Under the pieces are notes generated by a model. That model saw only the letters and a program-made list of their open reading frames with translations. It did not search any database and was not told the origin of the DNA. Of a stretch of DNA of 64,000 nucleotides, positions 4,018 through 64,000 are shown piece by piece. Source of the stretch: Candidatus Babeliales bacterium (GTDB lineage: Bacteria; Babelota; Babeliae; Babelales; JANWKD01); contig CAVRJM010000001.1 of the NCBI GenBank assembly GCA_963722075.1, positions 981,898 through 1,045,897 on the forward strand, given 5' to 3'. Position 1 is the first letter of the stretch. Each line of letters starts with the position of its first letter. Both the position numbers and the translations under genes were made by a program.

Positions 4018-4830
4018 TTAATTTGGAAAATCGCGAATAACATCTACATCAACCGCTCCACCACCAATTTGTAATGCACGTGCTTTTACCCTTCTACGGT
4101 CCCACATCCGTGCATGGTAAATAATAAAATCAAGGATAGTTTTTCCTATTGCCGGCTTACCACCCGCATAGGTAGTCCGTTGTAATTCCTTCATCAACGG
4201 ATAATTAACTATCGCGTTACGTAGCTGTTCATTCTCATCTGAGAAAGATTTTGGTATGAGAGAATAAGAAGTTTTGGGTTGTGGTATAGCACGTAATTTA
4301 TCTCCTGCCCCATGAATACGTTTGGCTGCTCTATAAATTTTTTTAAGAAATTTACGTATAGGCTGTGTTGTACTAAGAGGAGCATCTGAAGTATTATAAG
4401 CAGCCATAGCTTTAATAGTATTGTATAATGGTGGTATATGGTCATCTATTATTTCTAATATTTCAAGTATTCTTATTAATATTCTCGTAATTATCCGTTG
4501 GTCGCTGGCTTCACCCTTGACATAATCTGGTAAATAATCGGAATTAAGAATTAATCTGGTCACCGCGTCTTCAATTAAAGCAAATTCTGCGCAACCTTTA
4601 TGAAATAAATCATTTAATGCTTCAGGGGTTACTTGTTTATCACATATTTTCAATGATATGATAGGTTTTTCTGGTTGTACTGATACCGGAATCGTGGGAG
4701 GAATGCCTGGCGTTAAATAATTATGTAACGTAGTAAGACGATTTTTTAAATCACCTAATTCTGTTTCTAAGGAACAATGTGCAATTTGAAAACCGACCAA
4801 AACAATTACTGAAGCAATATATTTATTCAT
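4018..4830 (-). CDS. Secreted protein of unknown function (carries LxxLKxxLxxLxxxLxP motif)
   Basis: 270-aa ORF with an N-terminal signal peptide (MNKYIASVIVLVGFQIAHC). Its ATG directly abuts the stop of the upstream BI-1 gene (TAAATG junction). Confidence 0.65.
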   Translation of the reverse strand: MNKYIASVIVLVGFQIAHCSLETELGDLKNRLTTLHNYLTPGIPPTIPVSVQPEKPIISLKICDKQVTPEALNDLFHKGCAEFALIEDAVTRLILNSDYLPDYVKGEASDQRIITRILIRILEILEIIDDHIPPLYNTIKAMAAYNTSDAPLSTTQPIRKFLKKIYRAAKRIHGAGDKLRAIPQPKTSYSLIPKSFSDENEQLRNAIVNYPLMKELQRTTYAGGKPAIGKTILDFIIYHARMWDRRRVKARALQIGGGAVDVDVIRDFPN

Positions 4831-5529
4831 TTATTCATTACCTCTTCTGCCAAAAAGTCTAAGCAACATTAAGAACAAGTTAATAAAATCAAGATACAAG
4901 GTAAGGGCACCTAAAACCGCCACTTTATTTTCCATTTCACCTTGATCAATTAAAAATTCACTCATTTTCTTTATTTTTTGAACGTCATATGCCGTTAACA
5001 ACGTAAAGATGACAATTCCTACTAAAGTGATTATGTAATCAAAGGTTCCATTTCTCAAGAAAATATTAACAACCATACCAATAATCAATCCAAAGAGTGC
5101 CATAATTAAATATTTACCAACATTGGTTAAATCTGTTTTGGTAAAATAGCCATATAAGGCCATGCACAGAAACATTCCTGCCGTTACAAAAAAGGCGGTA
5201 TAAATAGTGCCAATATGGTAAACTAAAAAGATTGTTGAAAAGGTGACACCCATTAAAATGGCATAAAGAATTAATAATAATATTGCCGTAGCAAAATTTA
5301 ATTTTAAAATTGCTGCTGATAATACAACAACAATCACCAATTGAAGAATAAAAAGAAAAAAGAGCAACCAGGGGCTGGTTACCAATTTTTGCACCAGTGC
5401 TGGTTGACTAACTACATAAAAAGCAGTTGCAGCAGTAATCAGCAACGCACCAGCCATAAAGGCATACACTTTATATAATAAATTTTTAGCTACGGAATTA
5501 ACCGTACGAGAGTTATCAGAATTAACCAT
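4831..5529 (-). CDS. BAX inhibitor-1 / YccA family membrane protein
   Basis: About 7 predicted TM helices in 232 aa. C-terminal LGALTLYLDFINLFLMLLRLFG matches the family signature (LYLDxINxFL). Confidence 0.8.
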   Translation of the reverse strand: MVNSDNSRTVNSVAKNLLYKVYAFMAGALLITAATAFYVVSQPALVQKLVTSPWLLFFLFILQLVIVVVLSAAILKLNFATAILLLILYAILMGVTFSTIFLVYHIGTIYTAFFVTAGMFLCMALYGYFTKTDLTNVGKYLIMALFGLIIGMVVNIFLRNGTFDYIITLVGIVIFTLLTAYDVQKIKKMSEFLIDQGEMENKVAVLGALTLYLDFINLFLMLLRLFGRRGNE

Positions 5530-5718
5530 TTTTTCCCTTCTTATATGAAATCCCTAATTTTTATATTTAAGATAATAAAATCCATTTTATCGGTGCAATG
5601 GTTTTAACTTGAACTTTACAGCACAAGTTTAGTAAATATAAGAATAACTGACGGTAACCTAGATTCTGTTGAGTTTTGGAAATAACTTTAAAATTTAAAG
5701 TTATATGCTTGGAAAAAA

Positions 5719-5905
5719 GCCGTCGTCACGAGCCGAAGGCGTGGTGATCAAGGCTATGCCGGACAAGGGCGTGGGGACTGTGTCCGCCGTAGCTTGTAGC
5801 GAAGGCTGGATCCAGGCTAAAATTTTCAAGGGAACCTGGATTGCTTCGACAAGCTCGCAACGACAAATTGTTGTTTTCGTCGTCATTACGAGCACAGACT
5901 GTGCA
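5719..5905. repeat. Composite GC-rich repeat island (several nested repeat units)
   Basis: Abrupt GC-rich patch containing cgtcgtcacgag...cgtggtgatc, gaaggctggatccagg, cctggattgcttcgacaagctcgcaacgac and cgtcattacgag. The overlapping track ORFs 5701..5895(-) and 5705..5944(+) are translations of these repeats. Confidence 0.75.
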
Positions 5906-5947
5906 TCTAGATTTTTTATAATTTATTATTTATATAAGGAGTAAATA

Positions 5948-6646: not shown

Positions 6647-6689
6647 GGTGAATGATTAGTCGTATAATGGAAAAAGGAAAATTTAATTA

Positions 6690-8833: not shown

Positions 8834-9821
8834 AAAAATTATCAATCAGTTTTTTATCTTGATACATTTGTATATCAAGTGCAGGAAAATAACTATCTTT
8901 ATACGTTAACAACTGTTCATTTGGTTTTATAACAAGCCTGCTATCACCAAGTGAGATAACAACAGATCGAGCGCCAATTCGTTGCAATAGACCGCCATTT
9001 TTTTCTAGATGATAACGAAGCAGCCCATATTTTCTTAATAATACTGGATCGCTTTGCCCCTGCCAAAGAACCAAGTAAATACGTTTCACCTGAGCAAGCT
9101 TGCATAATTGTGCACAATACTCAAAAGCAAGGATGCTTGGCTTTGTTATTATTAAATGATCAATAGTCGTTGATCCAAAATATTGAGTAAGCTCTCTTAG
9201 TAAGGTGTATTCAATCCAATTTTTTATAGTACCTCTAAGAGTAATTGCCGGATTAATAACGACCAATTGCTTATTATGTTGTAGCGCAATAATATCGCCT
9301 TTGCCACAAGGAATTTTTGTTACCCGCAATGAGTAAATTGGAAACAGCTTTAAAACCATTATTATAAACATTAGCGCCACCAGCAAACAAATGATTCTAT
9401 ATAATCGTGATAATGGCTTTAGGTGTAAAATCAAAAATCCCAATGCTGCAATACTTATAAGAACAAACAATGGCGGTTTTGCAAACCCTATAAGCCAACC
9501 CCGCGTTGCATATGTCATAAAGAACTGCCACCACTCTGCAAAATAGCTTAAACAACTGATTACAAAATCATTAGGCACATTGCAAAGCTCCAAGAAAAAA
9601 ATTGCACAACAAAGTAATAAAAAAATCGATAAAAATGGTGCAAATACTATATTCCCAATACAAGCCATGAGCGATATGGGCAATCCCCACGCAATTAAAA
9701 TTGGAAACGATAAAAATAATAAAAAAAGCTGTAATTCAATGCCTTGAGCAATCCGATTACCAATACGATAGCAAACGGATAATAGTTTTGTATGTATCAT
9801 AGTAGTTAAAAAATTGTTCAT
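8820..9821 (-). CDS. ComEC/Rec2-related membrane protein, short form
   Basis: TM-rich N-half with the competence-domain pattern QLFLLFLSFPILIAWGLPISLMACIGNIVFAPFLS. The C-half resembles the ComEC beta-lactamase-like region (PCGKGDIIALQ, IDHLIITKP) but lacks the HxHxDH metal motif. It is less than half the usual ComEC length. Confidence 0.5.
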   Translation of the reverse strand: MNNFLTTMIHTKLLSVCYRIGNRIAQGIELQLFLLFLSFPILIAWGLPISLMACIGNIVFAPFLSIFLLLCCAIFFLELCNVPNDFVISCLSYFAEWWQFFMTYATRGWLIGFAKPPLFVLISIAALGFLILHLKPLSRLYRIICLLVALMFIIMVLKLFPIYSLRVTKIPCGKGDIIALQHNKQLVVINPAITLRGTIKNWIEYTLLRELTQYFGSTTIDHLIITKPSILAFEYCAQLCKLAQVKRIYLVLWQGQSDPVLLRKYGLLRYHLEKNGGLLQRIGARSVVISLGDSRLVIKPNEQLLTYKDSYFPALDIQMYQDKKLIDNFSMVA

Positions 9822-9907
9822 GTTATTATATTAATAATAACAATAATCAAAATTTTAACTACAAAAATTGACAAGAGATATTTTTACTAGAGCTATACCA
9901 TTATCGT

Positions 9908-19591: not shown

Positions 19592-22306
19592 TTAGAATTT
19601 CCAACGCATTTCTACTTCACCACCATAATCACCCCGTTCATCACGCATACCGCGCAGAGTGATGTCATCAGATAAGAAATACTCAACTTCTAATTTAATA
19701 TCTTCAGATAAGCTAAAATTTTTCTGTATCATGCCACGCAACTGATCGTTAACATCAATTTCGATGGTCCCTCGAAAACCACCACGTCCTGATTGATCAG
19801 AAAAACCTGGTATAAAACGGATATGCTTAAACTGTTCTAATAACCCTTTAAAATACCCTTCCAATTTAGTCGCTGATTGCTCCGGACCAAAAATGATATT
19901 TTGCAACTTTTGCATAATCATTGCTGGCATCGCCAGACTTAATGATCCTTCTTCAGTTCCCGCCAGTAATAGGGTAATAATCTGTTCTTCAGTTAAGGGT
20001 GGCGTTGATTCAAAACTAATATGCGGTTGCTGTAACGATCCTTCACAACGCAATGTTATTTGATATTTTCTAATCTTGCCTTTTGCAATAAGCTCAACTA
20101 AAGGATCGTATAATTGATGCGGTAAAAAATGAATACCACAATGCGTAATAGAAAGCGGCCGATAGGGAAATGCTAATGTTCCTTTTTCTAAATATAAACT
20201 TCCCGTGCATTCTGGGTGTTGTAATCTTCCTTGTATAGCAACCGATCCTTGCACTGACGTATCTAAAAAGGATGTTTTCACTTCAATAGGATTTTTCGTT
20301 TCAATGAATAAATTTAACCAACATTGTTCCTTTAAATCAGTTCGAGAATCAGTTAAATCATTAGTAACTGGTTTACCAAATTGAGCAAAGATATTTTTTT
20401 TAAAATAACCACGATCGATAATTATATTACCCGTTAATTCATTTTTCTTATTTTCATCATATACATACACAATAGTGCCGGAAAAAACAGCAAACAACTC
20501 TTTTTGTAAGGTTAAAAACGCTTTTTTTATAAGACATGGTGCATAAATATAATAGGGAGTTCCATTATTGCGCAAAAGTATATGTGCTCGCGAACAATAT
20601 AATGATCCTTTATCAAGCTCTAAAAGACAATCGTTAAGTACAATTTTTTTAGCTTTAAAATCTGCATGCATTACCGCTTTCAAATTTCTAATCAAACTAT
20701 AGGTACCGGGTATGCGTATATTCCCTTCAATTAGTTCTAAAGAAGATTCTACTGATGATTCTTTATAGGTACCTTTTATATGTAAAATGCCTTGGCCCGG
20801 AACTTTATAATTAAAAAGATGATTGGTAATTTCTTGACCAATACTGAAATCAATAACCCCATTAAACCCTTCTTGATCGCTCATAATTTGTATCAGCGGC
20901 TGTTCTTTTTTTTCATGTACCGTAAAATCTGTTAATGCAAAATGTGGCTGTAAAGTAAAAGAGCCCTTATATTTTTTTTTATTAAATTCACCTTTAATAG
21001 AACAATCTTTAAAAGTTCCATCAATGGTCCCCTTTATACCATACGCAATTGATTTTGTTATCATATCTCGAGCATGCAATGTGTAGGATCCTGTATAGAT
21101 CCCATCCAACAAAGAAAGCTCAAACCATAATGCTTTTTTTTCAATAACTAATTCATTATGTATGGCAATATCAGCTACATTAGTAGCCTTAAGATAGCCA
21201 GTACTGGCTTTTTCATCATAGTAACCACCAATATGAGCATCTTTTACATCATCAAAAAAATGATCCGCATGCATCACCCATTTTTGTTTATTATAATCAA
21301 TAGCTATTTCTAAAGAGCCTAAAGGAATATTACACAAAGCGATATCGGTACATGTTAAGGATCCATTGAGCGTATCGGATAATTGTATGGTAAAATGACT
21401 TGTAATAGTCCCATTTAATACATCAGGTGCAACAAAAGGTATGAATGATGTTAAATAATGAGCTGGTATTGCTCCAATAACGGTACCATGCACGGCATGC
21501 GCTGTTTTAATCCAATTATAAAACATAAGATGCCACTGCTGATCAGAAGAATTAATAAAGAGCTGACCATTATTATTGCTCCAATGACCTTCAATAATAT
21601 ACTTTTGATCGTCAATGGGTAAATGCGGGAATAATAAGGTACTATACATATCGAGGCTAATTATATTATTTTTCCAATCGGGAATATCTAAATCAAAATG
21701 CCCCGAAAGAGCAGTACAATATTTCTTGCTATCATAAGTAACTTCACCTTCCATAAAATAAATTTGTAATTTTAACCATCCTTGTACATTGCTATAAGCA
21801 CCATTAAACAGGGTGCTATACGTCATGCTATTAGCACAATTATGTAAAAGAAAAGATCCATTATTAATGGTTAATGTTCTGAGTGTCGCAGGAAATCCTT
21901 CTGCACCAGCAATAAAATTTTGCAAATGCCCCACAATTGCTATTGATGAATGATCAAAGGTAGAATGGGAATCAAGATCATTTAAGGTAACTTCTATATC
22001 AAATTTATTTTGAAATAAAAATGAAAGCCATGAAAAATGTATCTTAAAATAAGGTGCACGCCATTGCCATTGCCCCTCAGGATCCGTAACACATACTTCC
22101 CTAAGCTCTATGGTACCGGTGAGAACATTCACCCGTGTTACCGTTCCTTCTAAATAACTTTTAAAAGACGTTAAAAAAATCTTCTTTATTTGCAACTCAA
22201 CAAAATGAATTACTTGGGGATCAAATTGAAGCAAGAGAAGCGCTATAATCACCGAAGCAAGAAATGATAAAAGCAGAGATCTAACGCATCTAAAGAACAC
22301 ATTCAT
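19592..22306 (-). CDS. tamB: TamB-like translocation and assembly module protein (DUF490 C-terminus)
   Basis: N-terminal TM anchor, long beta-rich body and a C-terminus typical of TamB (ISFESTPPLTEEQIITLLLAG ... GGEVEMRWKF). I placed the start at the ATG that forms an ATGA overlap with the upstream stop; the track start 22321 is also possible. Confidence 0.75.
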   Translation of the reverse strand: MNVFFRCVRSLLLSFLASVIIALLLLQFDPQVIHFVELQIKKIFLTSFKSYLEGTVTRVNVLTGTIELREVCVTDPEGQWQWRAPYFKIHFSWLSFLFQNKFDIEVTLNDLDSHSTFDHSSIAIVGHLQNFIAGAEGFPATLRTLTINNGSFLLHNCANSMTYSTLFNGAYSNVQGWLKLQIYFMEGEVTYDSKKYCTALSGHFDLDIPDWKNNIISLDMYSTLLFPHLPIDDQKYIIEGHWSNNNGQLFINSSDQQWHLMFYNWIKTAHAVHGTVIGAIPAHYLTSFIPFVAPDVLNGTITSHFTIQLSDTLNGSLTCTDIALCNIPLGSLEIAIDYNKQKWVMHADHFFDDVKDAHIGGYYDEKASTGYLKATNVADIAIHNELVIEKKALWFELSLLDGIYTGSYTLHARDMITKSIAYGIKGTIDGTFKDCSIKGEFNKKKYKGSFTLQPHFALTDFTVHEKKEQPLIQIMSDQEGFNGVIDFSIGQEITNHLFNYKVPGQGILHIKGTYKESSVESSLELIEGNIRIPGTYSLIRNLKAVMHADFKAKKIVLNDCLLELDKGSLYCSRAHILLRNNGTPYYIYAPCLIKKAFLTLQKELFAVFSGTIVYVYDENKKNELTGNIIIDRGYFKKNIFAQFGKPVTNDLTDSRTDLKEQCWLNLFIETKNPIEVKTSFLDTSVQGSVAIQGRLQHPECTGSLYLEKGTLAFPYRPLSITHCGIHFLPHQLYDPLVELIAKGKIRKYQITLRCEGSLQQPHISFESTPPLTEEQIITLLLAGTEEGSLSLAMPAMIMQKLQNIIFGPEQSATKLEGYFKGLLEQFKHIRFIPGFSDQSGRGGFRGTIEIDVNDQLRGMIQKNFSLSEDIKLEVEYFLSDDITLRGMRDERGDYGGEVEMRWKF

Positions 22307-22806
22307 GGCATAAGAACCCAACGGTTCTGATACTCATATTTTCTTATATAAGGCAGTTGCGCACTTGGTATTGTTATTGCATACGCATATTGTTTAGTTG
22401 CGTCAATCAAATATATCGTTCCAGAGCTCATTGATCCATCAGGGAAAAATTGTATTTTATCGTGCACAAAGGTGATCGCTTGATTAATCTTGTGCAACGG
22501 TTGTGAGGGGGGGCCATAACATTCAGGTAAAAAACCAAATCGTATATTATTAGATAATGAATACGTACTTGAATCCACGGTATAACTTTGGCGAGCTTGA
22601 TTAAATGTCAGCTTCTGTTCCTTATGAGTTGCTAATGCATATTGACGCAAATAGTAACAAACCATAGCCAATTTTTCTACTTCTGATTTAAGTACCGTGT
22701 TATTTAAAAATGAAAGACTTGGTAACGCTAATCCTATAATAACCATGATAAGCGTAATAACTATGAGAAATTCCATGAGAAAAAACCCCTGCTTAGCAGT
22801 TATCAC
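22303..22806 (-). CDS. Prepilin-type N-terminal cleavage/methylation domain protein (minor pilin / GspH-FimT-like)
   Basis: The leader MITAKQG followed by FFLMEFLIVITLIMVIIGLALP fits the G/F-x-x-x-E prepilin peptidase motif with Glu at +5. GTG start 12 nt after the ATPase stop. Confidence 0.75.
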   Translation of the reverse strand: MITAKQGFFLMEFLIVITLIMVIIGLALPSLSFLNNTVLKSEVEKLAMVCYYLRQYALATHKEQKLTFNQARQSYTVDSSTYSLSNNIRFGFLPECYGPPSQPLHKINQAITFVHDKIQFFPDGSMSSGTIYLIDATKQYAYAITIPSAQLPYIRKYEYQNRWVLMP

Positions 22807-22818
22807 TTTTTTTCCCTT

Positions 22819-32259: not shown

Positions 32260-32261
32260 TA

Positions 32262-36325: not shown

Positions 36326-37030
36326 TTATTTTAAATGATTAGCCGTATCATTAATAGAGGTAAAAACCTTTTCTCTCAATTCATCAATCGACGGCAGATC
36401 AATTGATTCCATAAGATATTTTTGATTATAATTTTTAATATTATCGTCTAAATTACTTAAATCGATATTAATGTTATAAATCAAATCATTTAATGGAAAA
36501 TTAAGCAACTTGCCAAAAATTTTGTTTAAATCTTCGATTAATGCTCCAGAGACTTCGAGATTCTTATTAACTATATTTTTAATCATAGCCAACACATCCT
36601 CAATTTCTTCTTTAAGCATATCAAAAGATGGCTGTTTCTTTTGCTCCTCGAAAACGTTGTCGCCTTCTTTTTCTTTGCCTACTTGTTCGTCTGAAGGCAG
36701 CTCTTCTTCTTCATTACCTACTTCTTCATCTGAAGCCAGTTCTTCATCTTCATTGCTTGATTGCATAGATTTAATTCTCTGCTTTTCTGCTTTATAACCT
36801 AAATATGCACCAGAGCAAACAACAGGAATAAATGCAATTCCAGCAACAATATAAGGATGATCTTTTATTATTTGTGAAATATACGAGAGAGAACCAGTTA
36901 AATTATCTAAAACGGTTGATTTAACAGAAGAAAAATAAGAGCAATAAGCTGCGGGCTGAAACGCCATACAGAGCGCCAAAGCAAGGACACTCTTTTTTAA
37001 AACTTTTCCATTTGTAACATTAGTAAACAT
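36326..37030 (-). CDS. Signal-peptide membrane protein with acidic tandem repeat (HPYxAGIA family)
   Basis: Start set at the ATG 5 nt after GGAGG. TM segment KDHPYIVAGIAFIPVVCSGAYLGYK. Two copies of a 39-bp repeat (36675-36752) encode EELxSDExVGxE. Confidence 0.6.
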   Translation of the reverse strand: MFTNVTNGKVLKKSVLALALCMAFQPAAYCSYFSSVKSTVLDNLTGSLSYISQIIKDHPYIVAGIAFIPVVCSGAYLGYKAEKQRIKSMQSSNEDEELASDEEVGNEEEELPSDEQVGKEKEGDNVFEEQKKQPSFDMLKEEIEDVLAMIKNIVNKNLEVSGALIEDLNKIFGKLLNFPLNDLIYNINIDLSNLDDNIKNYNQKYLMESIDLPSIDELREKVFTSINDTANHLK

Positions 37031-37112
37031 TGTAACCTCCATAATTAATATCTACAACATAAACAGCGTATCATTAATCTCAAAATAACGCAAATAGGGT
37101 TATTTTAAAATT

Positions 37113-45057: not shown

Positions 45058-45732
45058 ATGAAAAATATGCTTAGATTAAGTATAGTATCTTTGTTATATT
45101 CTGTTTACAGCATTTGTATGGATCCAGCAATCGATCAAAGCCTTATGAGCTTAAAAAGAGGATTGCGACAGTTACATCAAGAATTAGTACCAGCTGGCAA
45201 TTTGCCACCAACAATGCGCGTAATACCAACTATGGCAGAAGAAGTGGAAGAAGAAGAGCCTACTTTTATTGAAAAAGACGAACGTGGTGGGGTACGTCAC
45301 CTTTCTCGTCACAAATTTGGGAAACTCAGAAGAGCTCATCGAAGCACGCATCGCCGAACTACCTTATTCAAATGCAAGCGCGGTAAATGTCGCAAAGTAG
45401 AGCAGTATATTGCTGGATCTCAAGAACATAGTAAGCATGATCAAATAAGAAGAGCATTTTTTGAATTGCAAAAAAAATATGGCATTTGTGTAGCTCGCCC
45501 TCAACAAACACGCTTACCAATTGCTGAACGACGAGCGTGGGGAAAAAATCCAAATCGCAAACAAATTATTGCATTGCGCAGTGAATTAAACGAGTTACTA
45601 AAAAAAGATACTTTAATGGGTTCTGAAATTACCCTCATAAAAAATAAAATCAACCAGTTGCGCCAATTAAATCCTCGTCGCTGGCCAAAACCAGAAGATT
45701 ATGAAGAAGTTTTAACGGCAAGAGAGCTCTAG
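45058..45732 (+). CDS. Secreted basic protein with KCKxGxC motif (unknown function)
   Basis: Start set at the ATG 7 nt after AAGGA. Signal peptide, then the LxxLKxxLxxLxxxLxP motif. Arg/Lys/His-rich with FKCKRGKCRKV. Confidence 0.6.
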   Translation: MKNMLRLSIVSLLYSVYSICMDPAIDQSLMSLKRGLRQLHQELVPAGNLPPTMRVIPTMAEEVEEEEPTFIEKDERGGVRHLSRHKFGKLRRAHRSTHRRTTLFKCKRGKCRKVEQYIAGSQEHSKHDQIRRAFFELQKKYGICVARPQQTRLPIAERRAWGKNPNRKQIIALRSELNELLKKDTLMGSEITLIKNKINQLRQLNPRRWPKPEDYEEVLTAREL

Positions 45733-45800: not shown

Positions 45801-46166
45801 ATGAATAAATTCTATACAATTACTACCTTACTGCTTTTAGCAGCTACCAGCCAATTTAATACCATGCAAGCACAGCCAACCCAACAAGAATGGGATGAAT
45901 TACAAGAAAAAGTAGATGCTCTTACCGTGCGTGTTGATGCATTAGAAGAAAAATCTGAAGCCCGTAAGCAAGCGCGAGAAAAAATTAAAGCTCAATTTGC
46001 TGGAAGACGACATGGTGTACCGGGCAAATTTGCAGGGCGTCATAAATACAAATGTAAAGGCGGCAGATGTAAAAGAGTATCAGGTCGCAAATTTAATCGC
46101 TTACAAAATAAACGAGGATTCACCTGTACTGGCGATGTTTGTAAAGCAACAGAATCCGCTGAGTAA
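45801..46166 (+). CDS. Secreted basic protein with KCKxGxC motif (paralogue of 45058..45732)
   Basis: SD GGAGGA, signal peptide, coiled-coil-like segment and YKCKGGRCKRV. Confidence 0.6.
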   Translation: MNKFYTITTLLLLAATSQFNTMQAQPTQQEWDELQEKVDALTVRVDALEEKSEARKQAREKIKAQFAGRRHGVPGKFAGRHKYKCKGGRCKRVSGRKFNRLQNKRGFTCTGDVCKATESAE

Positions 46167-46199: not shown

Positions 46200-47414
46200 T
46201 TAAAAGAAATCTGCCATCCAAGATTTCATACGATTCATAATGCGCATCACCAACGGGCCTGCATGCGTTGTTATAATATCATTATTTTTTTGTGCACATA
46301 CTAATAATCCGTAGCCGGTTGCATAAATGGGATTATTTAACAAAATAACGTTATCTATATTTGGTGGATTACCAATGCGCACTGGCACTTTAAAAATCTC
46401 CTGTGCTAATTCCTGCATACCACCTAAAAGCGATCCGCCACCGGTGAGTACCAATCCCGATGCCATGTTTTTTCTCAAACCATGCGTGGTAACTTCTGTA
46501 TGAATAAGGCGTAATAATTCTTGAGCACGTGCTTCTAAAATAGTAATAATTTGAGATGAAGCTATAGTTCTTTTACCAGTGCTTATTGATTCAATCTCAA
46601 CACACTGAGTATATTGATTATCCCACAATACTGAACCAAATTCTTTTTTAATACGCTCAGCCTCATAAAGAGTTGTATTTAACCCAACTGCTAAATCATG
46701 GGTAAAATGATTACCAGCAACGGGAATAACTTTAGTAAAAGCGATTGCATCACGGCAAAAAAGCGCAATATCGGATGTGCCACCACCAATATCAACCATT
46801 AATACTCCCAATTTTTTTTCATCAGGAGTTAATACTGCTTGAGCAGATGCTAATTGCTCTAATATTATATCAGTAACTTTCACACCCGCCATTTCACAAC
46901 ATTTGATCAGATTATGCACTGAGGCAATAGAGCCGGTAATAATATGAACTTCTGCTTCTAAGCGAACACCATACATACCTACTGGATTTAATACTTTTTC
47001 TTGATTATCGATGATAAAGTGCTGTGGCAATACATGTAAAATTTGGTGCCCTTCAGGAACATTAATTGCACGTGCCGTCGCAATAACCTGCGCAATATCT
47101 GAGGTTTTAATCTCACCCCGCTTAATAGGAACCATGCCATGCGAATTAAGCGATTTAATATGACTCCCTGAAATTCCTATACATGCCGATTCAATACTAC
47201 AATCAGCCATTAATTCTGCTTCGCGAATTGCTTGTTTAATTGATTTCACCGTCTTATCAATATCAATCACTACTCCTTTTGCAAGCCCCTCAGAGGGTGC
47301 TCTGCCGATACCGATAATAGTATGAGCATCATCATTAAGAGCTATTAACACACAAATTTTAGTAGTCCCAATATCTATTGCCACGGTAATTTGATCAGAA
47401 AAAAATTTTTTCAT
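46200..47414 (-). CDS. ftsA: Cell division protein FtsA
   Basis: Actin-fold motifs (AIDIGTTKI, VDIGGGTSDIA, LTGGGS). 404 aa. Overlaps the ftsQ stop by 4 nt. Confidence 0.93.
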   Translation of the reverse strand: MKKFFSDQITVAIDIGTTKICVLIALNDDAHTIIGIGRAPSEGLAKGVVIDIDKTVKSIKQAIREAELMADCSIESACIGISGSHIKSLNSHGMVPIKRGEIKTSDIAQVIATARAINVPEGHQILHVLPQHFIIDNQEKVLNPVGMYGVRLEAEVHIITGSIASVHNLIKCCEMAGVKVTDIILEQLASAQAVLTPDEKKLGVLMVDIGGGTSDIALFCRDAIAFTKVIPVAGNHFTHDLAVGLNTTLYEAERIKKEFGSVLWDNQYTQCVEIESISTGKRTIASSQIITILEARAQELLRLIHTEVTTHGLRKNMASGLVLTGGGSLLGGMQELAQEIFKVPVRIGNPPNIDNVILLNNPIYATGYGLLVCAQKNNDIITTHAGPLVMRIMNRMKSWMADFF

Positions 47415-53027: not shown

Positions 53028-53267
53028 ATGAATAAAAAGCTTACAAAGCATGGAAATAGCTTAGCCTTGGTAATAGATAAGCCATTATTAAAGCTCCTTA
53101 AAATTAACGAAAAAACCTTATTGGAAATATCTATTAAGGATAATACGCTTATTATAAAACCAACTACTGTAAAAAAAGCGAAGAAAAAAGAAGCCTCTAT
53201 TGATGAAATTGCCGAACAAATCATGAATAAATATGATATTACTTTTAAAAAACTTTCTAAAACGTAA
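53028..53267 (+). CDS. AbrB/MazE/SpoVT-type antitoxin
   Basis: 79 aa. KHGNSLALVIDKPLLKLLKI is a swapped-hairpin (looped-hinge helix) motif. Its stop overlaps the doc start by 1 nt. Confidence 0.75.
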   Translation: MNKKLTKHGNSLALVIDKPLLKLLKINEKTLLEISIKDNTLIIKPTTVKKAKKKEASIDEIAEQIMNKYDITFKKLSKT

Positions 53268-53665
53268 TGGACATTTATTTTTTATCACTTCAAGAAGTCA
53301 TTTTTTTGCACAAAAAAATTATGGAACGTTATGGAAATGGCTCTATGCTTATCAGAGATTTATCCCTTTTAGAATCAGCGGTTGCCCAACCTCAAGCAAC
53401 CGCATTTGGCAATTATCTTCATAATGATTTATTTGAAATGGCATCTGCGTATGCTTTTCATATTATTAAAAATCATCCTTTTATCGATGGCAATAAACGA
53501 ACAGGATTACTTATTGCATTAACGTTTCTAATGCGCAATGGAGTAGAAATAACCACATCATCTAAAGATTTATATGATTTTGCTCTTGATATTGCATCTT
53601 CAAAAATAAACAAAGAAGAAATCGCTAGTTTCTTTAATAAACATTCAAAACTTATTGGTAATTAA
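53267..53665 (+). CDS. doc: Doc (death-on-curing) / Fic-family toxin
   Basis: The Fic/Doc core HIIKNHPFIDGNKRTG matches the Doc variant HxFxDGNKR. 132 aa. Confidence 0.85.
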   Translation: MDIYFLSLQEVIFLHKKIMERYGNGSMLIRDLSLLESAVAQPQATAFGNYLHNDLFEMASAYAFHIIKNHPFIDGNKRTGLLIALTFLMRNGVEITTSSKDLYDFALDIASSKINKEEIASFFNKHSKLIGN

Positions 53666-54958: not shown

Positions 54959-55399
54959 ATGAAAAAAAGTTCATTATTTCTTTTTATCATATTATTACCA
55001 ACATTTCTTTGTGCAAAACGAATGGTCTATTTCAAAAATGATACCAATTTTCCTGCAGATAACTTTTTATTTATCTTTGTATGGCACAGTCCAGATGCCA
55101 CGCAAGAAGAGCGTGATAAAGCGCATCATCAATTAGGCTTTATGCATTATTTTAAAGGATTTCCCAATCATATAGACCTTGATTCCCTAGTAGATACACA
55201 TACCAATAAACCAGTACAACCAGGTTATATTGTAGATCTTTTTATTAAAACCACCATTCCTTCAGGGTTAGAAACCAGAACATATCCTCCTCATAGAAAG
55301 TTTTATAAAGGAGAATTACGGCGTATTAAGCCACTAACCTATTCAGTAAAAGCATCTGATCTATATTTTGAGATTCAATTTGAACCTGTAATACCATAG
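54959..55399 (+). CDS. Small secreted protein, paralogue pair member 1
   Basis: 146 aa with a signal peptide. Shares RMVYFKNDTNF and IDLDSLVD..KPVQPG with 55591..56118. Confidence 0.6.
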   Translation: MKKSSLFLFIILLPTFLCAKRMVYFKNDTNFPADNFLFIFVWHSPDATQEERDKAHHQLGFMHYFKGFPNHIDLDSLVDTHTNKPVQPGYIVDLFIKTTIPSGLETRTYPPHRKFYKGELRRIKPLTYSVKASDLYFEIQFEPVIP

Positions 55400-55590: not shown

Positions 55591-56118
55591 ATGAAAAATA
55601 AAATAGGATTATTGGTTTTGCTGTTTATTTCATTGCCAGCAGCTGGTACTCGTATTGTTAAATTTCAAAATAACACTAATTATACTGATAAAATATTTTC
55701 TTATTTTGCATTTTCATTTTACAAGCCGGAGAATATAAAACCCGGTACTACTATAAATCCAGATTACTCTGCAATAGAATATGGTTTTGTAAAGCGGGTT
55801 GATTTAGATAATCTAAAAGATGATAAAACCAAGAAAGCAATTCCAGCAGGTCTTTCTGCCGATGTAAGGGTAGTAACGACACAACCTTCTAACCTTCCTC
55901 CAGAAGGTATTCCCCCCCAACCAATACCTTTAACCGGATCTCAAACTAATTTGGCACCTGGTACTTATACTATATATGAATCAAGCGATGCCATCCACTT
56001 TAGGCTGATTACTCCAACAGCACCTGCAGCTAGCACGCTCACCATCAGCAGCAAAATAAGTTATTTTGATTCTAATAACGATATAATTTCTTTATCAAGT
56101 GCTATTTTTTCTTCATAA
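55591..56118 (+). CDS. Small secreted protein, paralogue pair member 2
   Basis: 175 aa with a signal peptide. RIVKFQNNTNY and VDLDNLKD..KAIPAG. Confidence 0.6.
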   Translation: MKNKIGLLVLLFISLPAAGTRIVKFQNNTNYTDKIFSYFAFSFYKPENIKPGTTINPDYSAIEYGFVKRVDLDNLKDDKTKKAIPAGLSADVRVVTTQPSNLPPEGIPPQPIPLTGSQTNLAPGTYTIYESSDAIHFRLITPTAPAASTLTISSKISYFDSNNDIISLSSAIFSS

Positions 56119-56924
56119 TTATTTTTTATATCTATTTGCAATTGTGATTGAGCCGCTTGAAGTGCCGTATGAATATTTTGATCATATGCGTCGAATGGAA
56201 CATTTAGATTAGGATCAGCACCATTCATTAGTAGAAAATCTACTAATGATATATTCCTTATTTCAATGGCATAAAATAATAAGCTGCCATATCCACGATC
56301 ATTTGGACTCTTAAAAAGAGTATTAGGATTAAGTCCTTTTTGAACTGCTTTTTTAATAAAGTTAATAATATTTGTATTTTCAGAAGTAAAACCAACAAGT
56401 CTCATTCGAATAAAATATGGCTCATTTGAATTTTTTATGGGTGGCAAAGATGGATTAGCGCCATGATCTAATAGTTCAATTGCTATATCATATTGTGCGG
56501 TCTTATATCGTGATCCCTTTAGCGCTATATATAAAAGAGTTTCATCAGCTACATACGTATTAGGATTTAATCCATGGTCAAGAAGAGCTTTTGCCAATGA
56601 AAAATTGTTACCAAAAATCTCTATTAAAAGATGCTCATGTTGCATAAAAAAGGCGATTCCATTTGCATCTTCAAAAATGGCCAATCCAAGTTCAAAAGCA
56701 TTTTCTTTCATTATGTTCATTAAAATTGCGATGATAATTTCATCATTAAATACTTTTAAAGATATCCCATCATCTAATAGGCTTATTGCTGCTTCTTGCC
56801 ATTTTGTTACATTTTCTTTATTCAAAAAAATCATTAATATTCCTCTCCCTCTGAGCGGATGGTAATAATAAATGCGTGTTACCATTATATTTAAGTGATT
56901 AATAAATTCGTTTAATTTGAACAA
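56061..56924 (-). CDS. Ankyrin-repeat protein
   Basis: ANK-like units ending LLDHGLNPN, LLDHGANPS, VQKGLNPN and LLMNGADPN. The true start may be an internal Met. Confidence 0.7.
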   Translation of the reverse strand: MFKLNEFINHLNIMVTRIYYYHPLRGRGILMIFLNKENVTKWQEAAISLLDDGISLKVFNDEIIIAILMNIMKENAFELGLAIFEDANGIAFFMQHEHLLIEIFGNNFSLAKALLDHGLNPNTYVADETLLYIALKGSRYKTAQYDIAIELLDHGANPSLPPIKNSNEPYFIRMRLVGFTSENTNIINFIKKAVQKGLNPNTLFKSPNDRGYGSLLFYAIEIRNISLVDFLLMNGADPNLNVPFDAYDQNIHTALQAAQSQLQIDIKNNYEEKIALDKEIISLLESK

Positions 56925-56966: not shown

Positions 56967-57608
56967 TCAGACGAAGTAATGGCGCGCACTATTTTTTTTC
57001 GAACATCGGGAAAAATATCTAATTAATACGAATTTCTTATTTCCTTTAGTGAATGCAAATCGGTACAATGTTTTAATGGTCGCTACTAATTCATCTTGCG
57101 TATTAATTGAATCAGGTATCAATTCTAAAACCATCATAAGCTTTATTTCATTAGGCATTTCTAAAAATTTTTGGGTGCTTTCCTCCGTAGGCGTCTTTTT
57201 AAGTCTTTTTTTAAATCTTTTTTCAGCTTTTGCTTTTTCTTCTCGTTCGGCAGCTACTTGTGCTGCAATTAACTTAAATTGTTCCATTTCTTTACTTGGC
57301 TGTCCCTCAACTTCTTCAGGTAATTCCTCCCGCTCTTTTTCTTTTTCTCTAACAGATGGAGATTTTAGTTTTTTGCCTTTTTTTTCTACTTTTTTTGCTA
57401 ATTGTACAAGCCTTTGCTGAGTTAATTCATATTCCATTTGTTTTTGTTGCTCAAGCATAGATTCTTGCGTTCTTTGTGGCTTGCCTGGTCTTTTTAAATT
57501 ATTCTCTAAATCTGCTAATTTTTCTTTTAACGTTATAAGCTGATCCAGCTGCGCATACGTCATTCCATACAAAAATAACAGACAACTAATGATATATATT
57601 TTTTTCAT
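56967..57608 (-). CDS. Secreted K/E-rich coiled-coil protein (carries LxxLKxxLxxLxxxLxxP motif)
   Basis: 213 aa with a signal peptide and a highly charged central region. Confidence 0.6.
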   Translation of the reverse strand: MKKIYIISCLLFLYGMTYAQLDQLITLKEKLADLENNLKRPGKPQRTQESMLEQQKQMEYELTQQRLVQLAKKVEKKGKKLKSPSVREKEKEREELPEEVEGQPSKEMEQFKLIAAQVAAEREEKAKAEKRFKKRLKKTPTEESTQKFLEMPNEIKLMMVLELIPDSINTQDELVATIKTLYRFAFTKGNKKFVLIRYFSRCSKKNSARHYFV

Positions 57609-59484: not shown

Positions 59485-60996
59485 TTAATAAGAAATCCCC
59501 ACCTTACCCCATACACCCCAATTTGATAACGCAGAGCTATATTGCGAAGCTTCTATGAATGCACCCACACCAGCCAACACTGCAAATGATTCAGTTGCGT
59601 ATATATAACCCACTGAAATATGTCCGCGATGTGCCAACGCACCACGCGCTGCTCCTGAATCAATATCAAGATCTTCTACGCGAATTGGAACAAAAATCTG
59701 CTCGCCTCTGAAATTAACATCATTAGGAGCTTGTTCTTGAATGGTACTGCGACTTGCCGTAGCTGGTATTGCACTGGTGGTTGATAAGAATCCAACACCT
59801 GCGATGCCAAAGTCAGCAGGAAAACAATCGGCAAATTTAAGTTGTTCACGTCCACGAGCCCATAACCCATAGCCAACTTCTACTTGTACGTTTGATAGCT
59901 CCCAATCAAAACCAGTATATAAATCAAGCATATTATATGGCCGTGCTCGTACTCGACGCGTTAAAATATTCATCGCTGGAATATTCAACCCACCCTCTTT
60001 ATTATTAAGCAATAAATAACGGCTCCACGGGCGATCGATTAAATCAAAAGTACGCTTTTGATGGTTTCTAAAAAAATAGATGTTTTCAAAATAAGCAAAA
60101 AATGAAAAAAGTTGGCATTCAGGATCACATAATAATGGGAGTTTAAACGTGACGCCACTGCCAAAACCAAAATGACCATTATTACCAAGAAATGGATTAA
60201 AGACAAATTCCTGATTCGCTGAACCACGCAACGGAATCACCAGCATTGAGTACATACCAATTTGAAAATAATCACGATTTAATAAATTGGTTCCTAATTT
60301 GAAATCAACTTCAGCGAGTCCATTTTTTTTCTTTTTGCCATCAAACTTTTGAAAAAGATAGGCGGGGTTTGATAATGCTTCAAGCGCATCAGTAGGAAAC
60401 GTGGTACCCGGATTAATCGGCGGCGTTTGAGTAGGGGTTACCTTATTTTCTATCATCTGATAAGGAAGTGCCACGCCAACCCAAAAACTATCTAAGCATT
60501 CATACCCAAAGCAATTACCAAGTGGCATCATTGCCTCAATCCATAAACCAAATTGTTTTTGCCGTGGGTGCACCGAAAACGTGCCCGCAAAATTGCTTGG
60601 TAATCCCAACCATTCAGCGCGTACATCACGGCTATAGGGATTATTTGCAACAACCGCATCGCCTTTTATTAAAAGATTATGTTGATCATTAAATAAAAAA
60701 TAATGTGCTAAATCACGATCATGAGCTGATTGCTGGTATATTGGAATAATTTGTAATGCTAAGGATTGACACGTATTAAAAACAAACTCTTGCCAGAGCG
60801 GTTTTTGTGCGCCAATATTGCGGTAAACGGGACGCGACCAGAAGAAAGTACGGTCAGTTAGACAACTTACATGGCAATAACCAAATACTTCATTACACAT
60901 CACATTTACGCGATCCGGAACAGCAGAGTAGTTATTAAAATCAATGCTGTATAAAGGCATTACCACCATGCAGACAAGCAATAAAATTTTTTTCAT
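59485..60996 (-). CDS. Outer-membrane beta-barrel protein, family copy 2
   Basis: C-terminal WGVWGKVGISY, shared central blocks (RTFDLIDRPWSRYLL versus RSFDLKYRPWSRYLL) and NNGHFGFG versus HNHHVGF. Start set at the internal ATG (MKKILLL); the track start 61026 is possible. Confidence 0.7.
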   Translation of the reverse strand: MKKILLLVCMVVMPLYSIDFNNYSAVPDRVNVMCNEVFGYCHVSCLTDRTFFWSRPVYRNIGAQKPLWQEFVFNTCQSLALQIIPIYQQSAHDRDLAHYFLFNDQHNLLIKGDAVVANNPYSRDVRAEWLGLPSNFAGTFSVHPRQKQFGLWIEAMMPLGNCFGYECLDSFWVGVALPYQMIENKVTPTQTPPINPGTTFPTDALEALSNPAYLFQKFDGKKKKNGLAEVDFKLGTNLLNRDYFQIGMYSMLVIPLRGSANQEFVFNPFLGNNGHFGFGSGVTFKLPLLCDPECQLFSFFAYFENIYFFRNHQKRTFDLIDRPWSRYLLLNNKEGGLNIPAMNILTRRVRARPYNMLDLYTGFDWELSNVQVEVGYGLWARGREQLKFADCFPADFGIAGVGFLSTTSAIPATASRSTIQEQAPNDVNFRGEQIFVPIRVEDLDIDSGAARGALAHRGHISVGYIYATESFAVLAGVGAFIEASQYSSALSNWGVWGKVGISY

Positions 60997-61130
60997 TCTT
61001 GTGTTTCCTTTTTTGGTATCTTTCATAGGATAGGATAGCTACGTAAGAAAAACAAGGTACCTTTTTTTAATAAAATCTTGCAAATGATTTTCTTATTATT
61101 TTAGTATTGGGTTCATGAAATAGATAAATC

Positions 61131-61211: not shown

Positions 61212-62801
61212 ATGTTGTTATATCTTTTAACACTTTTCTTATTTCTATCCCATTCTTGTTTTGCCGATATGCAAAGGGAATTAACTAACCTTAAAGGAAA
61301 ATTAAACAATTTGTTATATGGTTTGCAGCCGTCTGCACCACTACCCACTCGCCTACCAACACCTACCTCGACATACCAACCACAACAACAAGTGCCAATC
61401 AGCGCTCGTATGGTAACGCCAACACCAATACAAGATCGCATATTAAATATTCAAAGGCGCCAACAGCAACCAATAAACTTTGGTGATATTTCTGATGAAA
61501 TATTACGCCGTGAAATGATTCTTATTGGATCGTCATGGAACTCTTCTGCAGCTCATTTACCCGCTTTTGAAAATGCCGTACAAGCTTTTTTAACATTTAT
61601 TCAATCAGATCAAGCAAAAAATATTCGCGCTGAGCCCCAACAATTTGTAGAAGTGGTAAATCAATTTCACAAGCTTTTTAACCCAACAGATGTTCAATAC
61701 CTCAAAGTACATCTTCAAACGATAACTGATTATGCTAAAAACCATACTGTAAGTAATCATGACAAGCAAATTGTATATAATTTTCTAACACTTATTTCAA
61801 ACATTTTGAATATTATTGCTGAAGAAGTTCTTTCTTATCGTGAAGACATTCTTATTCCTGAAGACCGAACAAAAAATATTTTTTGGGATTCAACACCATC
61901 AAATATATTTCAATTACCTGGTCATCAAGGTTACCCTCATGTACAAGGTTGGTGGTCAGAATTCATTGGAAAACCCTTAAGAGAACAAGCGCTTCATTAT
62001 AAACAAGGAGTACGCTATCCCGATGCCTTAAATATGGGTTATCTTGATCGCGCAATTCATGCGTTTATTCCAAAACCCGCACCACAACCAACCGTTACTC
62101 AGCCAACTCCACAACCTACGCCAACAACCATGCAACCAGTGCCTCAACAAGCCAGTTCACAACCAACAAGAACCTATCCTCTACGAGAGTTAGCTGAAAA
62201 ATATAAATACATTGACGAAGAATTAGTAGATATTAGTAACGATGACGTACAAATAGTTGCCGCCTCATATTTATATCCTTTTAGTCACAATATCATACAG
62301 CATCTTTCTCTTTTTGAACGGGCATTAGATAACTTTAGAAATTACTTAGTAACTCAACAAGGCGAAACAATTAACGAACCCGAGAGATTTGTTGAATTAG
62401 TAAGAGAGTTTAGAGATTTTTTTGGTACTGATAAAATAGAAGTGGTAAAACAAGCGCTGGATCATTTGATAAAAATGCCGTCTAGGTCTTTTTCCCCTGA
62501 AGACAAAGCAATTCTTCATAATTATTTGGATGATCTTTCTTACTTATTAAATCAAGTTTATGAAATTGCTAGTCAATTTGAACAAGATAATCAACGGCTA
62601 TTACATTCAGTTAAATGGGAAGGCGACGAATTTTCTGTTATGGCCCCAGGCGCACGTGATGCATATTTTTGGTTCAATAGCGGTATTGCTCAGCCATTAT
62701 ATGATGATGCAAAAGCGCGAGAAAATCCACGTGCTTCGCCAGCAGGCACCCCACTAAACAGCTACTATCTTTTTGATGCAATTAGACACTTTAAACAATA
62801 A
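61212..62801 (+). CDS. Secreted modular protein with P/Q-rich linkers (two ~200-aa internal repeats)
   Basis: Signal peptide, LxxLKxxLxxLxxxLxP motif and PQPT-type linkers. Two homologous modules (AFENAVQAFLTF..EPQQFVEVVNQFHKLF and LFERALDNFRNY..EPERFVELVREFRDFF). Confidence 0.7.
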   Translation: MLLYLLTLFLFLSHSCFADMQRELTNLKGKLNNLLYGLQPSAPLPTRLPTPTSTYQPQQQVPISARMVTPTPIQDRILNIQRRQQQPINFGDISDEILRREMILIGSSWNSSAAHLPAFENAVQAFLTFIQSDQAKNIRAEPQQFVEVVNQFHKLFNPTDVQYLKVHLQTITDYAKNHTVSNHDKQIVYNFLTLISNILNIIAEEVLSYREDILIPEDRTKNIFWDSTPSNIFQLPGHQGYPHVQGWWSEFIGKPLREQALHYKQGVRYPDALNMGYLDRAIHAFIPKPAPQPTVTQPTPQPTPTTMQPVPQQASSQPTRTYPLRELAEKYKYIDEELVDISNDDVQIVAASYLYPFSHNIIQHLSLFERALDNFRNYLVTQQGETINEPERFVELVREFRDFFGTDKIEVVKQALDHLIKMPSRSFSPEDKAILHNYLDDLSYLLNQVYEIASQFEQDNQRLLHSVKWEGDEFSVMAPGARDAYFWFNSGIAQPLYDDAKARENPRASPAGTPLNSYYLFDAIRHFKQ

Positions 62802-62815
62802 TCGTATTATTTTAA

Positions 62816-62850
62816 AAAGGGATGCAGTAGGCATCCCTTTTATTTTTTTA
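62816..62850 (+). terminator. Rho-independent terminator
   Basis: aaagggatgc / gcatcccttt stem with loop agtag, followed by a T-rich tail. Confidence 0.8.
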
Positions 62851-63019
62851 TTACTTCTTCTACGCTCTTATTTTCATAAATAATACCATGCATCGCTTGC
62901 GTTAATGTGCTTCTTGTAAACAAGGTACCTTTTTTTAATAAAATCTTGCAAACGCTTTCCTTATTATTATAAAAAATAAAATGATTGATTCCAATACTCT
63001 AATCCGTACGGAGAAAAAA

Positions 63020-64000
63020 ATGGCCATTTATTTTTTATTAATTTTCTTATTTCTATCCCATTCTTGTTTTGCCGATATACAAGGGGAATTAACTAATCTA
63101 AAAGGAAAATTAAACGATCTATTATATGGATTGCAGCCATCAGCACCTTCTTACCAACCATCATACCAGCCGCCATCATATAAACAACCACAACCAACGC
63201 CAACCGGTCGTCTAATGACGCCGACACCATTAAAAGATAGCATCATTGATATGTATACTGTGGTAAAAAAGACCCCAATCAGCAGGCTTAATCATATTCC
63301 AAAAATATACCCATTAATGACGAAAATATATTTAGAATGGCTTGCATTATTTGATGGCTTAGACGCTTTTGATTCTGCCTTAAATGATTTCTCAAACTTT
63401 ATAAAATCAGGCAAATTAAAAGGAACGATTACTGAACCACAAAAATTTGTTACGTTAGCTGATGCTTTAGATGCTTTTTTTAATGAAGAAAGAATTAAAA
63501 AATTAAAAAAAAGTATCATTGATTTAATAAAGACTTACCAAGCGAACCCTTCGCAAGTTGATTCAGAAAGCAAAAATCTCATCATTAGTTTTTTTAAACG
63601 AATTTCAACAATATATAATACGCTTGCCGAAAAAACATCAGAAATCTATGACGATTTGGCTAAGTTTTCAAAAACATTACCAGTAGATATCATTTGGACG
63701 GGAGAAGAAATAGCACAAGGCAAAACACGTACTATGCAACATTGGTTTAATGGATATATTAATATGCCTATGACTTATAAAGCAATGGCATATAATCCAT
63801 CAAAAGGAATTACTGAATCGCATTATTTAAATGCAGGATATATTCGTAATGCAATTCAAGCATTCGAAGGACATACGGTAACTTTGCCCGGCATACAACA
63901 GCCAGCTCCTCAACCAACCGCTCAACCACAACCAACTCCGCAACCCATGCCCTCACCAGTGCAACCTGTTACTCAACCAGCGCCGCAACCTACGCCAACG
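63020..64000 (+). CDS. Secreted modular protein, paralogue of 61212..62801 (3' end outside window)
   Basis: By my reading this frame is open from ATG 63020 to the window end (327 codons), and it is not in the ORF track. The first ~45 codons are nearly identical to 61212. Same module (LDAFDSALNDFSNF..EPQKFVTLADALDAFF) and PQPT linker. Confidence 0.75.
   Translation, partial: MAIYFLLIFLFLSHSCFADIQGELTNLKGKLNDLLYGLQPSAPSYQPSYQPPSYKQPQPTPTGRLMTPTPLKDSIIDMYTVVKKTPISRLNHIPKIYPLMTKIYLEWLALFDGLDAFDSALNDFSNFIKSGKLKGTITEPQKFVTLADALDAFFNEERIKKLKKSIIDLIKTYQANPSQVDSESKNLIISFFKRISTIYNTLAEKTSEIYDDLAKFSKTLPVDIIWTGEEIAQGKTRTMQHWFNGYINMPMTYKAMAYNPSKGITESHYLNAGYIRNAIQAFEGHTVTLPGIQQPAPQPTAQPQPTPQPMPSPVQPVTQPAPQPTPT

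Follow-up and report, generated by a model that had tools for sequence, protein, structure and literature searches.

Why should several secreted proteins of one bacterium, otherwise unlike one another, open their mature chains in the same manner? The question is raised by a stretch of 64,000 nucleotides (the window, with a G+C content of about 35%) from contig CAVRJM010000001.1 of a Candidatus Babeliales assembly, whose source is a Babeliales bacterium that is uncultured and probably parasitic. Five of the secreted proteins predicted in it, here called p1 to p5, carry the 17-residue pattern LxxLKxxLxxLxxxLxP directly behind the signal peptide. The pattern is part of an N-terminal module that secreted orphans of Babeliales carry; this module is genuine, under selection and undescribed, and its function is proposed from sequence. 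The motif appears to be the core of the module, which would be portable among secreted, fast-evolving proteins.

The regular expression L..LK..L..L...L..?P matches five times in the six frames of the window, each time directly behind a hydrophobic N-terminus. An earlier note on this DNA had quoted five peptides, and all of them were recovered by translation: LGDLKNRLTTLHNYLTP in p1 (4708..4758, minus strand), LMSLKRGLRQLHQELVP in p2 (45142..45192, plus strand), LITLKEKLADLENNLKRP in p3 (57486..57539, minus strand), where the Pro comes one residue later, LTNLKGKLNNLLYGLQP in p4 (61281..61331, plus strand) and LTNLKGKLNDLLYGLQP in p5 (63089..63139, plus strand). A loose version, allowing [LIVMF] and [KR], leads to the same five places only in the six frames of the 64-kb window. 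Among the open reading frames (ORFs) of at least 100 aa in the window, both the bare five-leucine heptad, with neither Lys nor Pro demanded, and a generic detector of amphipathic leucine heptads report only p1 to p5, and only at their N-termini. These heptad scans bear out, for the window, the view that the motif is confined to the mature N-terminus of signal-peptide proteins and is found neither at random positions nor in cytoplasmic proteins; such occurrences had been named by the earlier note as a refutation.

Could a Leu/Lys-rich composition produce such a pattern by chance? From the composition of the window proteome (60 genes, 18,139 aa; Leu 10.3%, Lys 7.1%, Pro 4.2%) 0.0013 matches are expected, and 0.003 from shuffled proteomes; these figures overstate the significance, because the pattern was defined after its instances had been seen. 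This after-the-fact definition favors a chance effect, as do leave-one-family-out hidden Markov models (HMMs), in which the left-out family scores 5-9 bits only, which also makes motif profiles unusable in large databases. On the other side, four independent occurrences are observed where 0.001-0.003 are expected, no internal or cytoplasmic copies occur in the window, the module is found in 0 of 423 control ORFs, and the leucines are conserved in orthologues under purifying selection. A chance effect is refuted by the tests run and retains a negligible probability. Seven invariant columns at the same offset in four otherwise unalignable proteins are far beyond chance.

Another possible source of the similarity is shared ancestry of the carriers. 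The genes in question are p1 (4018..4830, minus strand; an orphan of 270 aa), p2 (45058..45732, plus strand; a basic orphan of 224 aa), p3 (56967..57608, minus strand; a Lys/Glu-rich orphan of 213 aa), p4 (61212..62801, plus strand; 529 aa) and its tandem paralogue p5 (63020..64000, plus strand), which runs off the window; the database protein corresponding to p5, P0004 (553 aa), is called from an ATG further upstream, at 62981. While p4 and p5 are 47% identical by BLASTP, the four carrier families align pairwise only across the signal peptide and motif (E 0.005-0.2). When profiles of the p4/p5 family and of p2 or p3 are compared, the N-terminus is likewise the only part that aligns; on this sequence evidence, p2 and p3 are not members of that family, in agreement with the view that the motif is shared by proteins with no other detectable similarity. 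In a word-indexed search of 5.8 billion proteins, p1 matched itself only and p4 matched p5 only. No significant Pfam or NCBIfam match was obtained for p1 to p5 and ten family members.

The position of p1 is less clear-cut. It is the top non-family match of the family's N-terminal profile (E 0.008, among 11,748 ORFs), and hhalign gives a further weak match outside the N-terminus, between family positions 179-225 and p1 positions 100-141 (probability 21%, pairwise E 0.001). This extra match suggests that p1 may be a very distant member of the p4/p5 family. Thus, the statement that only p4 and p5 are otherwise homologous holds for pairwise BLASTP and has to be qualified by a weak, unproven similarity of p1. 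If all carriers formed one diverged superfamily, the helix could simply be its slowest-evolving structural element, with no separate role. The hhalign match of p1 is in keeping with this, and the single-domain members of the family are about as large as p1. Such an explanation is nevertheless improbable, since p2 and p3 share only their N-termini with the family, a disordered spacer parts the helix from the domain, and tandem genes of a related genome fragment (L005) carry different C-terminal domains behind it. A recently copied 5' cassette was also considered and was ruled out because the 5' gene regions of the carriers have no DNA-level similarity except between p4 and p5.

What does the module look like? 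Its heptad core consists of L1, L4, L8, L11 and L15, preceded by [MIL] at L1-4 (L1-3 in p3). The layout is that of a leucine zipper, with hydrophobic a and d positions in 3,4 spacing and at least eight of the ten other positions polar. The earlier note had placed the motif 2-8 residues past the signal peptide; since the heptad reaches one position further upstream, the helix would start 2-5 residues after the predicted cleavage site. Contexts predicted between cleavage and the first core Leu include A|DMQRE-L, C|SLETE-L and A|QLDQ-L. In p1, the signal peptide covers residues 1-19 (..IAHC|S), the heptad helix 21-39, and Pro41 opens a Pro-rich stretch at 41-56. In p4, a signal peptide at 1-18 is followed by the helix at 20-38 and a disordered Pro-rich spacer at 39-69, and then by a helical domain in two copies with a second Pro-rich linker between them. 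A Pro-rich stretch, which had been described after every instance, is found in four of the proteins, but in p3 it is weak, with two Pro only. Taken together, the module is, as read from sequence and prediction, an all-leucine a/d heptad helix of about 2.5-3 heptads, closed by a Pro/Gly hinge, behind which come a disordered Pro-rich spacer and then variable domains.

Signal peptides were judged by a hydropathy rule and inspection, and cleavage sites are predicted. The sites in the window carriers are of signal peptidase I type (CFA|D, AHC|S, SIC|M, TYA|Q), as expected for Sec export, and those of orthologues are AYA|D, IQA|D, AHA|D and VHA|I. A Cys lies near the cleavage site in four of the five proteins (SHSC, IAHC, YSIC), p3 being the one without it, and the carriers were therefore considered as lipoproteins. 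This idea was rejected because these sites do not form a lipobox, defined as [LVI][ASTVI][GAS]C at the cleavage site; a canonical lipobox, LSSC, is present in the BamD-like gene of the window at 24851. Moreover, neither RxLx[EQD] nor RxLR nor a charged motif directly after a lipidated Cys occurs in the five proteins. Nor do they have the build of TonB/TolA-like envelope-spanning proteins, in which an uncleaved N-terminal anchor, a Pro-rich spacer and a TonB_C or TolA domain are combined: the spacer is present, but Pfam finds neither domain, and the sites are of the cleavage type.

The monomeric AlphaFold2 model of p4, based on its family alignment (mean pLDDT 79, pTM 0.67), predicts a helix at residues 2-37, which comprises the signal peptide and motif (pLDDT 82-85), disorder at 39-69, and a confident helical domain at 72-284. 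The disordered Pro-rich spacer between helix and folded domain in this model supports the earlier suggestion that the motif is distinct from the functional domain. For the helical domain itself, no match was found in the PDB, with a best Foldseek E of 1.2; a sequence search of the PDB gave a best E of 0.01, to designed helical proteins. The single-sequence model of p1 (pLDDT 40.6) was unusable.

Is the motif kept in relatives? When 1.84 billion representative proteins were searched exhaustively by HMMER, the p4/p5 alignment matched eight real new members, P0006-P0013 (E 1e-57 to 6e-6), encoded on other metagenome contigs, and falsely one further protein, on a Pro-rich linker. In four of the five examined contigs (L083, L084-L087, L090, L091) the gene order of the window is kept around the family genes: ParA, a 99-aa gene, a 120-aa gene, a gene of about 505 aa on the other strand, the family gene or genes, DeoC and a penicillin-binding protein. 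The ParA, 99-aa and 120-aa genes of this block are seen in L083 and L085 only, and the fifth contig, L088 (P0013), has another gene neighborhood. The neighbor of about 505 aa is 73-88% identical among relatives; the family proteins are only 26-38% identical. A side observation concerns the secreted 513-aa protein of the window (59485-61026, minus strand), which has no Pfam match, is 73-88% identical in three relatives, and adjoins the fast-evolving zipper family in four syntenic ones. It ends in ..GKIGISY, a C-terminus that, judged by eye, resembles those of outer-membrane proteins.

In every family member, the signal peptide is followed at once by the helix. Aligned, the ten sequences show no variation at L1 and L11 and hardly any at L4 and L8 (an insertion shifts P0013), and L15 is Leu except in P0009, which has Phe, and in the shifted P0013. 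The five Leu columns rank within the 14 most conserved columns of the whole family protein, and when the nine members that align cleanly are compared, the six core positions have a mean entropy of 0.38 bits, versus 2.02 bits elsewhere. The other two consensus residues behave differently: at Lys5 the nine members have K, K, A, H, N, K, R, E and N, and five of the nine carry Ser, Gln or Lys in place of Pro17, with Pro or Gly-Gly 2-5 residues further on in some of these. Hence, a lack of conservation in orthologues, which the earlier note had named as a refutation, is contradicted by the leucines and holds for Lys5 and Pro17. The 17-residue consensus does not serve as a general motif, since only the a/d leucines are conserved across relatives; by sequence comparison, it is a genome-specific version.

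The conservation of the helix is also visible at the codon level. Between p4 and p5, codons 20-40, which cover the spacer and motif, have a dS of 0.72 and a dN of 0.063 (dN/dS about 0.09 for the motif codons), as compared to a dS of 1.24 and a dN of 0.65 in the remainder of the protein. Five further paralogue pairs, two in L005, one in L088 and two in L083, give a helix dN of 0.07-0.22 versus 0.49-0.86 elsewhere, so that all six pairs, from four genomes, span 0.06-0.22 in the helix and 0.49-0.86 in the rest. The helix dS of the five further pairs is mostly at least 0.56, with one pair at 0.18, to which gene conversion may contribute. Because the helix dS is mostly substantial, recent gene conversion is not the main cause of helix similarity. 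The helix is consistently the most constrained part of otherwise fast-evolving carriers. A separate observation was made just upstream, where the p4 and p5 DNA encoding the end of the signal peptide (..FLFLSHSCFAD; about 61233-61271 and 63041-63079) is identical over about 36 nt (dS about 0.1), next to motif codons with six synonymous differences (dS 0.72). This identity could reflect local gene conversion or a constraint at the nucleotide level.

How far does the module extend beyond the window? The closest relatives by FtsZ are metagenome genomes of Candidatus Babeliales (phylum Dependentiae/TM6), namely L002 (75% identity) and L003-L005 (66-68%); L006-L012 (52-64%) were treated as Babeliales, although only L008 is so labelled. 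The complete motif is found neither in 198 kb of 11 related Babeliales loci nor in 1.12 Mb of other phyla. A detector of the module was used that demands a signal-peptide-like N-terminus, a start at most about 22 residues from the hydrophobic core, five hydrophobic a/d positions with at least four Leu, and at least eight of ten other positions polar. Among signal-peptide-like ORFs, it reports 5 of 46 in the window, 6 of 36 in the syntenic family loci, 4 of 135 in the eleven Babeliales FtsZ loci (198 kb) and 0 of 423 in 69 loci of other phyla (1.12 Mb).

All four module ORFs from the FtsZ loci are tandem secreted genes in L005 (1477-5090), with the N-termini ISGLQQELNTLNNELGNLSQKL, followed by a Pro-rich stretch, and RLSGELKQLDMQLDGLTQSLNKLG. 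Within each L005 pair, the signal peptide and zipper are near-identical and the C-terminal parts far more divergent or different; in ORFs 3 and 4, for instance, the C-terminal parts are only about 30% identical behind a nearly identical signal peptide and helix. In the nearest relative, L002, a different secreted orphan without the helix lies between ftsA and ftsZ. The distribution is patchy: in these small samples, the module recurs in some Babeliales lineages and is not seen in others. A profile of the five N-termini gave no match among 5.8 billion proteins, a result that is uninformative, as the query proteins were missed too. Metagenome scans with a neighbor gene (A6) and with the L005 family (A7) gave no matches.

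Additionally, helices of the type L..LK..L..L...L occur at the C-terminus, after a Pro-rich linker, in an ankyrin-repeat protein of L090 (6370-7638) and in L012 (1794-2837, minus strand). These C-terminal zippers, LELLKNVLIQLQNQL and LGLLKIKLNELTMKL, belong to two Babeliales proteins with hydrophobic N-termini and might either pair with the N-terminal zippers or stand in for them. Their existence indicates that the helix need not adjoin the signal peptide and works at either terminus.

What, then, might the module do? The preferred reading, held tentatively and at a little less than an even chance, is that the helix serves association or docking by way of a coiled coil. A carrier would be exported by Sec and cut by signal peptidase I, as the n/h/c layout and the A|D-type sites suggest. 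The first 20 or so mature residues would then form the predicted amphipathic helix, with Leu at each a and d position over about 2.5-3 heptads, terminated by a Pro or Gly-Gly hinge. Behind it, 10-50 residues with much Pro, Gln and Thr, predicted to be disordered, would serve as a spacer and bear the variable C-terminal domains. At the envelope or cell surface, the helix would either oligomerise its own protein or zip different cargos onto a common zipper-bearing partner; in effect, the spacer would act as a stalk and the helix as a docking handle, not as a linear signal for a translocon.

Three features argue for coiled-coil packing over a linear tag: the hydrophobic stripe alone is conserved, the conserved residue is strictly Leu at a and d and not any hydrophobic one, and a disordered stalk lies between helix and cargo. 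The C-terminal parts behind the module are unrelated in p2, p3, the p4/p5 family and the L005 tandem genes. Furthermore, the five window copies share Lys5 and the Pro cap while orthologues vary, which hints that the copies of this genome have adapted to one common partner, as docking and sorting alike would allow. Several points weigh against association or docking. Stable self-association usually takes at least 3-4 heptads, and the helix counts 2.5-3 of them in the window carriers and about 3 in L005, which is little for a coiled coil that has to be stable by itself. No partner protein was identified, and the data cover 64 kb of the genome itself, 198 kb of eleven relatives and about 60 kb of syntenic contigs. 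Receptors of amphipathic helices, likewise, select the hydrophobic stripe only. Finally, the fixed place 2-5 residues past the predicted cleavage site is needless for oligomerisation and suits a tag at the mature N-terminus better.

This last point leads to a second-step secretion or sorting tag, in which, after Sec export, an envelope machinery would recognise the N-terminal amphipathic helix and move or sort the protein. A type II secretion/type IV pilus-like system, the loading of outer-membrane vesicles and a surface-anchoring receptor are candidate machineries; a T2SSE ATPase and a GspH-like (pseudopilin-like) protein are in fact encoded in the window (22303-24549). The regular placement of the helix in all clear N-terminal instances (five or six families), its limitation to signal-peptide proteins within the window, the effector-like orphan character of the carriers, and the Lys5 and Pro cap kept in all window copies are consistent with such a tag. 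Yet surface-exposed positions vary freely among orthologues, C-terminal copies exist, only about 5 of some 25-45 signal-peptide proteins of the window carry the helix, with signal-peptide ankyrin proteins lacking it, and 10 of the 11 fragments from related genomes showed no copy. To our knowledge, no secretion route uses such a signal. A sorting tag is considered less likely than association or docking. Its more specific form is less probable still: the helix would be a lineage-specific second-step targeting signal, by which a common receptor takes Sec-exported effector-like proteins across or onto the outer membrane or to the host.

The helix might also act after delivery, either by pairing with coiled-coil proteins of the host or as a translocation motif like PEXEL or RxLR. 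In favor of this, the Babeliales in culture live as intracellular parasites in protists (PMC6561590), p3 immediately precedes an ankyrin-repeat gene (56061-56924), and the carriers evolve fast, in the manner of effectors, with 26-38% identity against 73-88% for the conserved neighbor gene. On the other hand, the carriers lack a PEXEL or RxLR consensus, conservation falls on hydrophobic core positions, and there is no evidence of carriers reaching the host; an F-box in the C-terminus of p3 was also tested as a possibility, and the idea failed. A host-directed role is given a low probability, and association or docking remains the preferred function.

Comparison with known systems helps to place the module. 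Eukaryotic proteins such as COMP/thrombospondin-5, tenascin and myocilin have a similar layout, in which the signal peptide is followed almost immediately by a heptad coiled coil that multimerises the cargo, and then by a linker and globular domains. Their coiled coils have at least five heptads, are often disulfide-locked and bear no sequence relationship to the module, which has 2.5-3 heptads, all-Leu a/d positions and a Pro cap. Among bacterial envelope proteins, the Braun lipoprotein Lpp, pneumococcal PspA and streptococcal M proteins open their mature N-terminus with a coiled coil, and PspA has a Pro-rich spacer behind it. However, Lpp is lipidated at a canonical lipobox, which the module carriers lack, and PspA and M proteins combine long coiled coils with defined anchors (choline-binding repeats, LPXTG). 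The only database contact of the carriers with PspA was an insignificant match on the Pro-rich linker (E 0.63).

Export motifs offer a different parallel. Plasmodium PEXEL (RxLxE/Q/D), oomycete RxLR and the lipoprotein export signal of Bacteroidetes also stand at a fixed short distance behind the signal peptide, on otherwise unrelated, fast-evolving secreted proteins of a host-dependent organism. Unlike the module, with five or six Leu on one helix face, they are linear motifs of 4-5 residues with charged or polar key residues. Cohesin-dockerin and SLH systems follow the logic proposed for docking, in which different secreted cargos use one small common module and one scaffold, but these are folded domains of 60-70 residues with known partners, and the module is a single short helix. 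The literature searched contains no description of such a motif in Dependentiae, and together with the lack of Pfam and NCBIfam matches, this agrees with the earlier opinion that it is not a described one.

The consequences depend on the function. If the helix only oligomerises its carriers, which is the simplest reading, it is a modest addition to known coiled-coil modules. If it were a targeting signal, it would be a bacterial counterpart of export motifs of the PEXEL/RxLR type and a sequence handle for effector prediction in a phylum without a known effector secretion system. Dependentiae are a widespread phylum whose cultured members are obligate parasites of protists. With a selected, recognisable module common to unrelated orphans, some of these can be grouped for the first time, and a common partner or a self-assembly step is predicted. 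The window itself encodes many signal-peptide orphans, ankyrin-repeat proteins, TamB, a BamD-like lipoprotein and a type II/IV secretion ATPase with a GspH-like protein. Its wealth of signal-peptide orphans matches the published picture of the phylum: Chromulinavorax destructans, the only well-studied relative, has signal peptides on 44% of its coding sequences, orphans being enriched among these and forming the majority, and no dedicated effector secretion system is known in it (PMC6561590).

Two weaker heptad stretches were noticed in the window by permissive detectors only. One of them, LDNLTGSLSYISQIIKDHP (36854..36910, minus strand), lies behind the signal peptide of gene 36326-37042; it is without Lys5, has a Pro at +4 and is then followed by a hydrophobic segment. 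The other, WDELQEKVDALTVRVDAL (45891..45944, plus strand), reported by one permissive detector, lies behind the signal peptide of gene 45801-46166, which adjoins p2; it has heptad spacing, but its hydrophobics are mixed and there is no Pro cap. Neither was counted as an instance, and both may be degenerate versions of the module. The gene 45801-46166 and p2 are two small opposite-strand secreted orphans that part ftsZ (43725-44876, minus strand) from ftsA (46200-47414, minus strand). In L002, the same gap holds an unrelated secreted orphan (9350-9823), which shares the strand of ftsA and ftsZ. New secreted genes seem to use the space between ftsA and ftsZ as a landing site.

Other neighbors were recorded as well. 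Beside p1 (907-5529) lie genes for an RPE65-type carotenoid oxygenase, an FAD-dependent oxidoreductase and a membrane protein of the Bax-inhibitor-1 family; this last gene (Bax1-I, 4831-5529) borders directly on the start codon of p1 and is therefore probably transcribed together with p1. A transposase of the IS630 family (31289-32167, minus strand) lies in two pieces, an HTH part (31772-32167) and a DDE_3 fragment (31289-31603), and is probably degraded or frameshifted. A Fic/DOC family protein of 132 aa (53267-53665) is encoded among small secreted orphans. Close to p3, there are tandem small secreted paralogues at 54959-55399 and 55591-56118 (..KRMVYFKNDTNFP.., ..TRIVKFQNNTNYT..), which, judged by eye, have a look-alike in L085 (450-863) directly upstream of ParA. 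Both p3 and its ankyrin neighbor are missing at the syntenic place of L085; in the window, they are inserted between these paralogues and ParA.

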